A DNA stretch of 64,000 nucleotides from an uncultured Parachlamydiaceae bacterium. Lineage in GTDB: Bacteria; Chlamydiota; Chlamydiia; Chlamydiales; Parachlamydiaceae. Shown here in pieces: positions 32,055-34,881 of the stretch. The notes under the pieces are model-generated. The model was not told where the DNA came from, did not search any database, and saw only the letters and a program-made list of their open reading frames with translations. The position numbers were made by a program, and so were the translations under genes. The stretch lies in contig CAWHZN010000012.1 of assembly GCA_963833865.1 (NCBI GenBank), positions 6,241-70,240 on the forward strand. Reading direction: 5' to 3'. The stretch's first letter is position 1; every line of letters starts with the position of its first letter.

Positions 32055-34881
32055 TTACATAATGTCGGAAACCCATAATGTGCTATCTGTTTTTTCGTCT
32101 TTACCAGAACTACCATTTATATAAGCGCAAAAATCATCAAAATCCTTAACCTCATCAAGATCATCAAACGTTTTTCCTTTATTAAGAAGAATGTACCTAT
32201 TGTAATAGTCCTCCCTTTCCTTTTTATCAGTGCTTAACCTCGACATACTGCGAAGCATAAAGGGATCATTGTTGTGACCTAATTTTTCCGCTTCTTTAAA
32301 GTACATTAAAGCAACTGCAGTCTTCTCTTTCTTTTTATTGACGTAAAAAGAATCTCTCGATTTTTTATAGAAAATACGCCCCAGATTTCTCTGCAAAGAG
32401 TGTGTTTTTGCTTCATGCCCCTTTTTTAAAATACTGAATGACTTTTTTCATATCTATTTTACTTAAGCCGATATCTTTATAGTGACGATAATAAATGATT
32501 CCTAAAAGATAATGCATCTCGCCATTCACATATTCCATGGCCTCAGCTTCTTCCATACTCAATTTTGCTGTTAAGTAGTCTTGCTTTACCCCTCGGCCAT
32601 GATAGTGAAACGTCCCTATCTTGAAAAGGGCAGCTGGGTATTGCTTTGCTTTGGCCTTATTATAGTATTCTAGGGCGATCTTATAGTCTTTGAGGAACAC
32701 CTATGCCACCTTCATACATTTCTCCCAGATGGAACAGTCTTTTGCAAATCCTCTCTCTGCAGATAGTGCGACTAACTCAAATGCTTTTTTGAGATCCTTT
32801 TGGACGTAAAGACCCTTCTCATACATAATCCCCAGTAAATACTTGCTCTCTAGATTTCCCAGACTGTCGGATTTGGAATAGACCTCGAATGCGGTTTCAT
32901 ACTTTTTCTCTTCTTCTAACCTTTGACCTTCCTTCAGGAGATTTTTTGAAGTGATTCCAAGGAGATGGATACTGTCTTTATCTCCTCTTTTGCTCCCTTC
33001 CAGGTACCATAAAAGGGCTTTATCTTGCTCCTTAGCGTTTTCATAAATCTTGCCAAGCTGAAAAAAGGAACTTTCATATCCCAGGAGAGCAGCATTTTCA
33101 TAAAACCACTTGATGCTTTCTTTGGATCCTTGTGTTATTTCTAAATTCCTTGCTAATTCAAAGAAATTTTTCCCTTCTATCGAAAAACTATTCATTAAAT
33201 GGTTGAGGGTATTATCTAATTTACTTTGCAATTCTCTCAGGGTAATTTTGTCTTTATTTTCTTCCAATACCCCAGTGGAGATCTCAAGAGGTTGTTGATA
33301 GTCTTTATCTGAAATTCCATGAGACACCAAAAAGTCCTTGTCATAATTCATCCTAATTTCTTGAGAATTTAGGTAAGTAAATTCAAAATACTTTGGGACA
33401 TGATGGTGTTTTACAACTTTTTGTAAATGGTTATTAAGAATTTCCTTCATTTTTCCATCGCTAAACCTTGGAAATTCGATGAATTTAAAGAATCGTGTTT
33501 TTAAAGCATCATAAAAGAAGTCTTTTTTCATATTTTGATTGGCTGTAATGATAATGTTGAGATGACTTATATCTATATATGTATTAAAAAAGGGACTATA
33601 GAATTTAGTTTTCTGCGGATCTATATAATCAAGAAGCCAGCAGAGAGTCGATATTGCAGCATCGGACGTGGAATTCTCTAAAATCCTGTCAAGATCATTA
33701 ATAATTAAAAAGCAATTTTTATAGTTCTTTCGATCTTTTATAGTTTCTTTTTTCCCCTCTATGAAGGGCTTTGTCAACCATCCAACTGTTGCACCAGGAT
33801 TCAGGCGCTCTGTTCCCTCTAAGCTCATTTGAGAAAGGTCAGAAGATGACCGTATATTCATTTCAAGATAAGCTTCTCCCAAGAATTCTGGTATGAGCTT
33901 TGCGGCCAGTGTTTTACCACAAGAAGGGTCCCCGGAAAAGTAATATGCTTTTTTGGTCGGTACTTCTTTGGATTCAGAGGTAGAATCGACAGCAGTTTGA
34001 GTAATGATGTCATATAAGTTCCCTCGGACGCTTTGGCTAAAGTTTTGGAAAACTGGTGTGTTGTCAAATCTTTCCCGAAGATCAACTCTTGATTTCTGGG
34101 GAGTTTTCGAATCAAAAAGAATTTTTGTTTCCAAAGGTAGATTTAAAGAGGTTTTTAGGAATGCTGTTGTAACTCCTGTAAAATACCCCTCAGACCTACG
34201 AGCCTCAATAAGACCTCTTTCTATTTCATCCCTTAATGATTCTTCCTTTATTTTTCTTTTATTTTTAATATATGGAATTTCGTATTTTCTTATAGGTTCA
34301 GTTTGTAATCCACTTTTTAAATCTAGAATTTCGAATTCTAATTTTCTTATTTCACTATTTAACATTTTAGAATCATCTTTAGAAAAGTACTTGTCAATTA
34401 AATGTTCTCCCAACAAATTTGTTATCACAGAAATAACACTTGCGACGCCTTGCCCACAGACACCCCCAATCAATGGATCACCCACGGCTAACCCAAGCGC
34501 ACTTCCTCCTATGAGCCCTCCGCTAAGAACAATTCTTTCTAGACACCTTATAGCATTTTCCCAAAACTCTCTTTTTACAGACTGATTGTAGACTTTTCTC
34601 AGTATTTTGATTTTGCTTTCCACACGCTCTATACAATTTTTCGCAAGTTGGTTTTCTTTTAAGAGATAGAGATGCTTCTCGAGGGCTTCATCAAGCTGTT
34701 CCTCAGTTAAGAGAGCTTCCTTAACTTGAGGTATGAGTTTTTGTAACACCTCCTCTTGATTATAGATTTCCGTGGTAAAGATCTCATCGTATTTTCCACA
34801 GATACCCTCTGAGGGAAACAACATTCCCGAAACAGCAAGCACTCCTAAAATTTTTTTTGATGCAATAACAACTCTATTCAT
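32055..34881 (-). CDS. Signal/glycine-zipper + Lon-like AAA+ domain + Sel1-like repeat protein, frameshifts near 32740, 32690 and 32410
   Basis: Walker A GDPSCGKT; LIINDLDR; LLDYIDP...IDISHLNIIITAN (Lon AAA-like); Sel1 repeats LGIMYEKGLYVQKDLKKAFEL and IGTFHYHGRGVKQDYLTA. Confidence 0.7.

Follow-up and report, generated by a model that had tools for sequence, protein, structure and literature searches.

A Protease-Less, Lon-Like AAA+ Family Found beside Lasso Peptide Clusters and a LuxR-NB-ARC-TPR Regulator, with a Disrupted Copy on a Contig Assigned to the Parachlamydiaceae

The Lasso Peptide Locus and Gene X

The stretch of DNA analyzed here, referred to as the window, comprises 64,000 nucleotides (positions 6,241 to 70,240, forward strand) of contig CAWHZN010000012.1, named C12 below, from the assembly GCA_963833865.1 of an uncultured Parachlamydiaceae bacterium. 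On its minus strand, at 32055–34881, lies the gene under study, X, which encodes a Lon-like AAA+ protein without a protease domain and is embedded in a lasso peptide cluster. Homologues of X recur beside lasso clusters and, at least as constantly, beside a LuxR-NB-ARC-TPR (STAND) regulator, and they end in one of several interchangeable C-terminal domains.

The whole cluster is encoded on the minus strand. It begins with two lasso precursor genes (37429–37698), A1 at 37570–37698 and A2 at 37429–37569, which were recognized from the sequence, are intact, and have leaders that both end in ASELTQG. These are followed by the intact gene of the lasso B protein (B, 36662–37429), which matches Pfam Transglut_core3 with an E-value of 2.9e-24 and NCBIfam lasso_biosyn_B2 with 94 bits, against a cut-off of 33. 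Next come a pseudogene of the lasso cyclase (C, 34874–36665) with 4–5 frameshifts, X itself, and a pseudogene of a McjD-type ATP-binding cassette (ABC) exporter (D, 30288–32024) with 6–7 frameshifts. The cyclase was traced by tblastn, frameshift-aware alignment to three intact homologues, and a weak Asn_synthase match on its first fragment, and the exporter by Pfam ABC_membrane and ABC_tran matches on its fragments, tblastn, and frameshift-aware alignment. The regulator (R, 26643–29963), identified by its Pfam domains, is intact. An initial annotation of this DNA, made from the sequence alone, had named the genes flanking X as a lasso cyclase and an exporter; homology bears out both identities, but both genes are broken.

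X starts with an ATG at 34881–34879, with a GGGAGG site a few bases upstream, and this start overlaps the TAG at 34876–34874 that closes the last cyclase fragment. At the other end, the stitched reading of X terminates at a TAA (32057–32055), and the exporter ATG lies 30–33 nucleotides beyond, at 32024 or 32021. Both junctions can be read directly from the DNA and are as the initial annotation had described them. The same annotation had also taken 32055–34881 as one gene-length open frame, and this does not hold: three frames had been stitched silently, and only the first 726 codons (32701–34881) are open. This open head was defined from the list of open reading frames and its translation, Pfam AAA and Sel1 matches, and an AlphaFold model, and holds a signal-like N-terminus, a coiled-coil hairpin, the Lon-like AAA+ module, and the first Sel1-like helices.

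The head is closed by an in-frame TAG at 32701–32703, and three-frame translation of the Sel1 tail reveals three frameshifts in addition to this stop. The Sel1-like reading departs from the X frame around 32745, re-enters it around 32693, and shifts around 32415 into the frame that ends at 32055. The tail is accordingly made up of a short stretch in another frame that reads the Sel1 consensus LFHLGEMYEGGIGVPQ and has a frameshift at either end (32693–32745), a piece with Sel1 repeats in the original frame (32413–32700; Pfam Sel1, E 1.1e-6), and a last piece in a third frame, also seen in the list of open reading frames, which runs to the TAA at 32055–32057 (32055–32415). Once stitched, X measures ~940 codons, compared with 966–1020 amino acids for intact homologues.

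The Lon-Like ATPase Module

X is a Lon-like AAA+ protein without a protease. Pfam AAA (PF00004) matches its residues 314–471 with 30.6 bits, over a gathering cut-off of 21.2, and a profile of 40 X homologues retrieves from the PDB the ATPase module of mitochondrial LONP1 with an E-value of 1.6e-16 and bacterial Lon proteins with values of 1e-11 to 1e-13, among them Lon from Bacillus subtilis (1.7e-13). The AlphaFold model of the open head has a mean predicted local distance difference test score (pLDDT) of 84.8 and a predicted template modeling score (pTM) of 0.72. With this model, Foldseek finds Lon at 1.6e-10 and the LonA fragment 4ypn, which consists of the three-helix bundle and the AAA alpha-beta subdomain, with a template modeling (TM) score of 0.73 by target. 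The PDB profile and Foldseek place the LonA-like three-helix bundle and the large and small AAA+ subdomains at residues ~261–495 (33397–34101). The module that the initial annotation had likened to the ATPase of Lon is hence supported by both profile and fold comparisons.

The absence of a protease domain, claimed in the same annotation, extends to the family: Pfam detects neither Lon_C nor any other peptidase family in X or in the 40 homologues. In the model, the AAA lid is followed only by a small beta unit, after which the helical repeats begin. The possibility of X being a Lon proper was considered and rejected, as the S16 protease domain is missing and X scores 21.3 bits with TIGR00763 (Lon), whose cut-off is 608. 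No name for X is provided by NCBIfam or PADLOC, and a look-alike search of the ESM Atlas returned generic AAA/Lon clusters only, under 0.9.

All motifs quoted in the initial annotation (GDPSCGKT, LIIND, LLDYIDP...IDISHLNIIITAN, and ALKTRF) are found in the translation. GDPSCGKT is the Walker A motif (residues 317–324; 33910–33933), in which G317, G322, and K323 are invariant among the 40 homologues. The same invariance applies to N448, the sensor-1 Asn, and to R463, the Arg finger. The Walker B motif, LIINDLD (residues 392–398, with LIIND at 392–396; 33688–33708), is degenerate: the family columns and the alignment to LONP1 confirm that ND takes the place of the DE found in Lon and classical AAA proteins. 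This pair varies across the family: the close subfamily has ND or NE, other members have DD or ED, and only a few have the canonical DE. Similarly, X has an Asn at the position aligned to the pore-loop Tyr of LONP1, and this position is variable in the family. Because the residues for nucleotide binding are invariant while Walker B and the pore-loop Tyr are relaxed, X may function as a nucleotide-binding, ring-forming switch or scaffold, rather than as a processive unfoldase.

The N-Terminal Region

The signal-like N-terminus and the Gly-rich hydrophobic stretch that had been noted in X are both present in its translation. Residues 1–28 (34798–34881) comprise a basic start, a hydrophobic core of 12 residues, and a polar stretch. 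At least 33 of the 40 family members have a hydrophobic core preceded by Lys or Arg near the N-terminus, within the initial ~70 residues. In the model, the hydrophobic first helix is followed by the highly conserved motif Y..FT..IY.Q, and a helix of ~70 residues then folds back, giving helices 60–133 and 136–165 with lower pLDDT at the tip. Models and hydropathy locate the Gly-rich hydrophobic segment (residues ~113–160; 34402–34545) at this tip of the long coiled coil, as a bilobed helical hairpin of ~46 residues, and further helices continue from there to the three-helix bundle.

Given that the flanking domains are conserved with or without the hairpin, the latter should span a membrane in an even number of passes, if it does so at all, and the conserved N-terminal region would then face the same side as the ATPase. 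That side would be the extracytoplasmic one if X has a genuine Sec signal at its N-terminus. Folds of the IpaB or ClyA type were considered for this region but not retained, since the matches are below significance and constitute leads only; for the ClyA-type toxins AhlB, SmhB, and MakA, Foldseek gives E-values of 0.2–0.3 over residues 1–310, below the level that is meaningful for helical folds.

Interchangeable C-Terminal Domains and the Extent of the Family

An exhaustive HMMER search collects 220 cluster representatives of the X family at E<=1e-3, of which 55 also pass E<=1e-30, while a word-indexed search had recovered only two homologues besides X itself. No match was obtained with X as a single protein in the genome contigs or with the family alignment in the metagenome contigs, and tblastn of X against the PLSDB plasmids matched its Sel1 part only.

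The C-terminal domain changes from member to member. Among 40 members, Sel1 is found in seven, Ank in five, BNR in three, and ricin-B in three, in addition to TPR and LRR. In X, Sel1-like helical repeats fill residues 548–726 of the open frame (32704–33240), as indicated by a Pfam Sel1 match at 678–711, by helix pairs in the model, and by a SEL1-repeat protein in the PDB that matches the C-terminal part of the family with an E-value of 2.9e-8. The Sel1 scores (PF08238) of the pieces of X, 23.8 bits for the open head and 29.3 bits for the next frame piece, remain below the gathering cut-off of 30.7; in X homologues, Sel1 reaches an E-value of 5.5e-30. The matches to the Sel1 repeats of the initial annotation are split over frames and lie just below the Pfam cut-off, and Sel1 is only one of several domains that can occupy this place.

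Distant members of the family have 450–640 amino acids and 22–27% identity. One such protein, of 570 amino acids and without C-terminal repeats, is encoded in locus L050 (152–6389), convergent with another ABC exporter and accompanied by an open reading frame of 48 amino acids and two proteins without a family. This set may represent a different exported-peptide system.

Genetic Neighborhoods

The neighborhoods of X were compared in 19 loci of the close subfamily, the window included, of which 17 have usable flanks and are therefore informative. Lasso B, C, or D genes adjoin X in 10 of the 17 and R in 11, and only in L044 is X beside neither. Seven informative loci carry X without lasso genes, six of them with only R beside it. 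R is thus at least as constant a partner of X as the lasso genes are.

The order of the genes is not fixed. The initial annotation had raised the possibility that X lies repeatedly between C and D, but the order C-X-D is found in the window only; usually, the order is C-D-X or X lies across R. The arrangement C-D-X occurs in L011, L024, L043, L046, and L049. At least five loci have X immediately after D; in one of these, L024, the stop codon of the exporter gene overlaps the X start. In L012, D is followed by R on the opposite strand and then by X; in L017, X is divergent from D-C-B-A-R, which share a strand; and in L047 and L069 X is upstream of B. In the lasso-less loci L015 and L045, R is followed divergently by Y1 and Y2 and then by X. 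Y1 and Y2 (L015, 8380–10001; L045, 3692–5403) are paralogous proteins of 250–280 amino acids with clear signal peptides and without a Pfam family.

The precursors of the X-linked loci, two to four per locus and divergent from each other, share a leader end of the form (E/S)AS.LT(Q/K/N/R)G and cores with Gly at position 1. A maximum-likelihood tree built from the N-terminal and ATPase parts has a fully supported deepest split, and both of its sides contain lasso-linked as well as Y-linked X proteins. A survey of the neighborhoods of homologues had been set beforehand as the decisive check on the association, and the presence of lasso clusters beside X in 10 of 17 loci indicates that the link of the family to lasso peptides is genuine. 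An unrelated gene inserted by chance into a lasso operon would account for an order seen in the window alone, but is hardly credible when those ten loci adjoin homologous lasso clusters in several gene orders.

X appears to evolve fast relative to B and R. Between the window and L046, X is 30% identical, compared with 68% for B and 57% for R. The C and D proteins of L046, compared with other loci only, show 57% and 62% identity; the broken C and D of the window were left out.

Two of the loci carry genes of the S9 family next to X. In the lasso locus L024, a prolyl-oligopeptidase-type gene of this family lies just downstream of X (13118–15184); its size and family are those of lasso isopeptidases. 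In the lasso-less L048, a 146-amino acid fragment of the same family adjoins X (7721–8161), and may be a remnant of a lost lasso cluster.

Regulator R and a Shared Palindrome

A 10-nucleotide palindrome, TCTACGTAGA, was found by inspection of the sequence upstream of R (30065–30074) and upstream of the precursors (37921–37930), with a further site in the window at 30088–30097. The presence of this palindrome upstream of both the precursors and R had been reported before, and it is strengthened by other loci: the exact TCTACGTAGA recurs in the intergenic region between R and the lasso genes of L046 (4505) and in that between X and R of the lasso-less L048 (11319), and a variant, CTTACGTAAG, lies between Y and R in L045 (5479). 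The palindrome is a candidate binding site for R. R and X are, in addition, often divergently transcribed, and the shared palindrome together with this frequent arrangement supports X as a putative target of R. The intergenic region shared in L048 could equally serve the autoregulation of R.

Plasmids of Megaera polyxenophila and of the amoeba symbiont Paracaedimonas acanthamoebae also encode R homologues, in neither case together with X or lasso genes, and the Paracaedimonas plasmid has no Y genes either. R therefore regulates accessory cargo in protist symbionts more broadly.

A second LuxR-type protein is encoded in the window at 20823–21662 of the minus strand. It has 279 amino acids and a C-terminal LuxR-type helix-turn-helix (HTH), and shows weak similarity (24%) to a small LuxR-type protein that lies between R and the precursors in L024.

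Decay of the Cluster

For the count of lesions, intact C and D proteins from related loci were aligned to the window in a frameshift-aware manner. C, D, and the tail of X accumulate 13–15 lesions across ~4.2 kb, against zero in the 2.1-kb head of X; by simple Poisson arithmetic, the chance of finding none in the head at that density is ~1e-3. As assembled, the cluster is incapable of making or exporting lasso peptides. The contrast between the clean head and the lesions of C, D, and the X tail hints that the head, like R, has been kept under selection after the loss of lasso production.

Independently of any function, the stop and the frameshifts could be local assembly or sequencing errors, X and its neighbors being intact in the organism. 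The genome scores 74% complete in 13 contigs, C12 is atypical in composition and could have low coverage, and a few lesions adjoin homopolymer runs (A8, T6, or T5). However, most of the 13–15 lesions are outside homopolymers and they are concentrated in three genes, with B, R, the precursors, and the X head clean. Elsewhere in the genome, rpoB (1257 amino acids) and rpoC (1402 amino acids) are open and free of stops, and the window itself contains open frames of 2504, 1265, and 1106 codons, which argues against a genome-wide assembly problem. Errors of this kind are accordingly regarded as an improbable source of the lesions.

Distribution and Origin of the Module

C12 is a 72-kb contig separate from the main contig of 2.1 Mb, whose 16S gene carries what we take to be the Chlamydiae-specific target of probe Chls-523. 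The assignment to the chlamydiae is based on this 16S signature, as Pfam Chlam_OMP6, searched in the genome with no positive control, gave no match. The ATPase part of X is found in none of the 72 other genomes of the family to which the window is assigned, and in none of the 399 other scored genomes of its phylum. It is instead in the Alphaproteobacteria that X occurs, in 9 of 401 sampled genomes, all of 1.1–2.5 Mb, and in 8 of the 27 genomes of one order. The genome whose B, R, and X are 68%, 57%, and 30% identical to those of the window is of this kind.

The tetranucleotide composition of C12 correlates with that of the main chromosome at 0.83, against a minimum of 0.86 for any 72-kb chunk of the chromosome. 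AT-rich alphaproteobacterial loci correlate with the main chromosome about as C12 does, so that composition cannot assign C12. Exact or near-exact repeats of C12 are common to other small contigs only, and not to the main contig. C12 could be either an accessory replicon or island, or a contig mis-binned from a co-resident bacterium. The module formed by R, the lasso genes, and X would, in turn, be mobile, having reached the chlamydia laterally unless the contig is mis-binned, and seems to be decaying here. Homologous lasso clusters flanked by insertion sequences (IS) are common to unrelated amoeba symbionts and are mobile, and a role in host interaction has been suspected for them (PMC8831229, PMC3423634).

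Several other genes of the window can be described briefly. An IS200-type transposase (Y1_Tnp) is found at 39388–39828, and the 99 bases just before it (39271–39369) match the terminus of contig C3 exactly, which looks like a junction of the assembly graph at a repeat. Divergent from the precursor genes, at 38145–39047 of the plus strand, lies a gene for a 300-amino acid S-adenosylmethionine-dependent methyltransferase, which could be a tailoring enzyme or unrelated. Positions 1–17000 hold a cluster of polysaccharide or O-antigen type, with a hexapeptide transferase, a dTDP-sugar dehydratase, a nucleotidyl transferase, a Wzt-type ABC ATPase, an acyltransferase, and a multi-domain methyltransferase/glycosyltransferase of 1265 amino acids. 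Finally, an ABC exporter (567 amino acids) and an HlyD-type adaptor (502 amino acids), encoded in overlapping frames at 22509–25665 of the plus strand, resemble two components of a type I secretion system, whose substrate could be the giant repeat protein at 54277–61791.

Proposed Role of X

The reading favored here, tentatively and with a likelihood placed somewhat below even, is that X belongs to the regulon of R as a co-regulated, exported product, rather than being an enzyme of lasso maturation. R would switch on X alongside the lasso peptides or, in other loci, alongside the signal-peptide proteins Y1 and Y2. X would be exported or inserted into a membrane by means of its N-terminal signal and hydrophobic hairpin, and would probably form a ring with bound nucleotide, serving as a switch or scaffold without threading a substrate. 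The interchangeable C-terminal repeat domain would probably hold a target, and the eukaryote-like domains, together with the small, endosymbiont-like genomes, suggest that this target is probably a host component. An enzymatic role in the maturation or export of the lasso peptides is argued against by the fact that X occurs without lasso genes and here outlives them. Among the roles put forward in the initial annotation, that of a co-regulated effector is the best fit; its suggestion of a decoy for a target of the ClpC1 type finds no support.

A number of points weigh against this reading. The hydrophobic hairpin is common in the family yet missing in several homologues, so membrane insertion would not be universal, and the fold search with residues 1–310 is non-significant for a helical fold, the best match being the coiled coil of the translocator IpaB (Z 9.0). 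There is no ATP in the periplasm, which makes an ATPase behind a Sec-type signal odd. The endosymbiotic lifestyle of the X carriers is deduced from genome size, most of them being only metagenome-assembled genomes named 'Alphaproteobacteria bacterium', and the distant, shorter members of the family have neither lasso genes nor R nearby. Furthermore, immunity genes of bacteriocins also sit overlapping the exporter gene or directly after it, and the rapid evolution of X equally fits an immunity protein that tracks hypervariable lasso cores.

These last two points lead to the main rival, a serious one although unlikely on balance, in which X is a factor of self-protection of the producer, or associated with the exporter. 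Anchored in the inner membrane beside the ABC exporter, for which its N-terminal hydrophobic segment and hairpin could be the anchors, X would bind or sequester the mature peptide, or shield the target of the latter, through its variable C-terminal domain. The position directly after D in at least five loci, with the overlap of D stop and X start in L024, is in agreement with such a role, as are the lasso genes beside X in 10 of the 17 informative loci and in both deep clades of X, and the parallel between the fast evolution of X and the multiple divergent precursor cores of each locus. It is harder to reconcile with the seven informative loci that carry X without lasso genes, six of them with only R beside X, and with the window itself, where the cyclase and the exporter are dead and yet 726 codons of X are open. 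Ricin-B, BNR, and Ank domains would, moreover, be surprising if their ligand were a small lasso peptide within the producer cell, and in systems of the microcin J25 type it is the exporter McjD itself that confers immunity.

X might alternatively be a signaling partner of R, that is, a membrane-bound, nucleotide-binding sensor or anti-activator that times the activation of the lasso or Y operons by R. The association of both genes in 11 of the 17 informative loci, lasso-less ones included, speaks for this, and nucleotide-binding residues that are kept while those for hydrolysis and the pore loop are relaxed would be expected of a switch. X, however, is usually divergent from R or ends a cargo operon, the arrangement of a target gene rather than of a co-expressed partner. 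The R homologues on the Paracaedimonas acanthamoebae and Megaera polyxenophila plasmids have no X, and swaps of a whole C-terminal domain would be unusual for the dedicated partner of one regulator, which leaves this role rather improbable.

The interpretation of X as a co-regulated, exported output of R admits a more specific and bolder form, which is a long shot. The X family would constitute a new type of AAA+ device that protist endosymbionts export: a nucleotide-gated ring of Lon descent, secreted by means of a signal peptide, that inserts into a host membrane with a hairpin like those of ClyA and IpaB and grips a host target by its repeat domain. It would act together with the co-regulated lasso peptides at that membrane, where it could, for instance, receive them, concentrate them, or let them in. 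If this were true, the lasso peptides would belong to a two-component system aimed at the host, rather than being bacterial antibiotics.

Relation to Known Systems

The closest relatives of the ATPase of X are LonA and LONP1, which provide the best profile and fold matches and with which it shares the three-helix bundle, the AAA+ alpha/beta and lid subdomains, the Lon-type motifs around Walker A, the LLDxLDP...TAN block, and the Arg finger. X differs from LonA in the lack of the S16 protease domain, in an N-terminal part that is all-helical in the models, in the ND of Walker B in place of DE, in a pore-loop tyrosine that is unconserved in its family, and in the addition of the signal-like N-terminus, the hydrophobic hairpin, and the C-terminal repeat domain.

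The lasso genes of the window resemble those of the microcin J25 and capistruin type, with precursors whose leaders end in ...LTQG and whose cores start with Gly, a B protein with a transglutaminase core, an Asn-synthetase-like cyclase, and a McjD-like ABC exporter. Unlike those systems, the loci of X add a conserved AAA+ gene and the LuxR-NB-ARC-TPR regulator and have two to four divergent precursors each, and the C and D of the window are pseudogenes. The accessory genes of lasso clusters include S9 isopeptidases of the AtxE type, kinases, methyl-, acetyl-, and nucleotidyl-transferases, and TonB receptors; to our knowledge, none of these classes is an AAA+ protein. X is likewise a recurrent non-core gene of the clusters, but of the AAA+ type. 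Full-text searches on lasso peptides, in part combined with AAA+ and Sel1 and otherwise with the names of symbionts, found no paper describing this AAA+ family. As far as the databases and literature searched show, the X family is new, the lasso clusters themselves being known.

Sel1 repeats are also found in LpnE and EnhC from Legionella, proteins of intracellular bacteria that have no AAA+ module. X shares with them the signal-like N-terminus and the repeats, but it possesses the AAA+ module, and in its family Sel1 is only one alternative C-terminal domain. The bilobed hydrophobic hairpin (~46 residues) at the tip of a long helical hairpin recalls IpaB, ClyA, and the chlamydial Inc proteins, whose bilobed hydrophobic domain has 40–60 residues, although the fold matches are below significance, the hairpin is absent in several homologues, and, in the case of Inc proteins, the X homologues with an identified taxon are alphaproteobacterial rather than chlamydial. 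R, for its part, resembles STAND regulators of the MalT/LAL type in its LuxR HTH, NB-ARC NTPase, and TPR array, and in being often divergent from its presumed target genes; it differs in the N-terminal position of the HTH and in having homologues on plasmids of protist symbionts.

Significance

The copy of X in the window is a pseudogene in a dead cluster, on a contig that may not belong to the chlamydial chromosome, and its own interest is therefore limited. The relevance of the finding lies in the family. Lasso clusters have been widely mined, and their accessory genes were thought to fall into few enzyme classes, yet a conserved AAA+ family and a STAND-LuxR regulator travel with one lineage of them, which occurs in small-genome Alphaproteobacteria resembling protist endosymbionts. 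The family provides an example of a Lon ATPase module that has lost the protease and gained a signal sequence and swappable, eukaryote-like binding domains. It would also offer a concrete and testable partner for the host action suspected of the lasso clusters of amoeba symbionts (PMC8831229).

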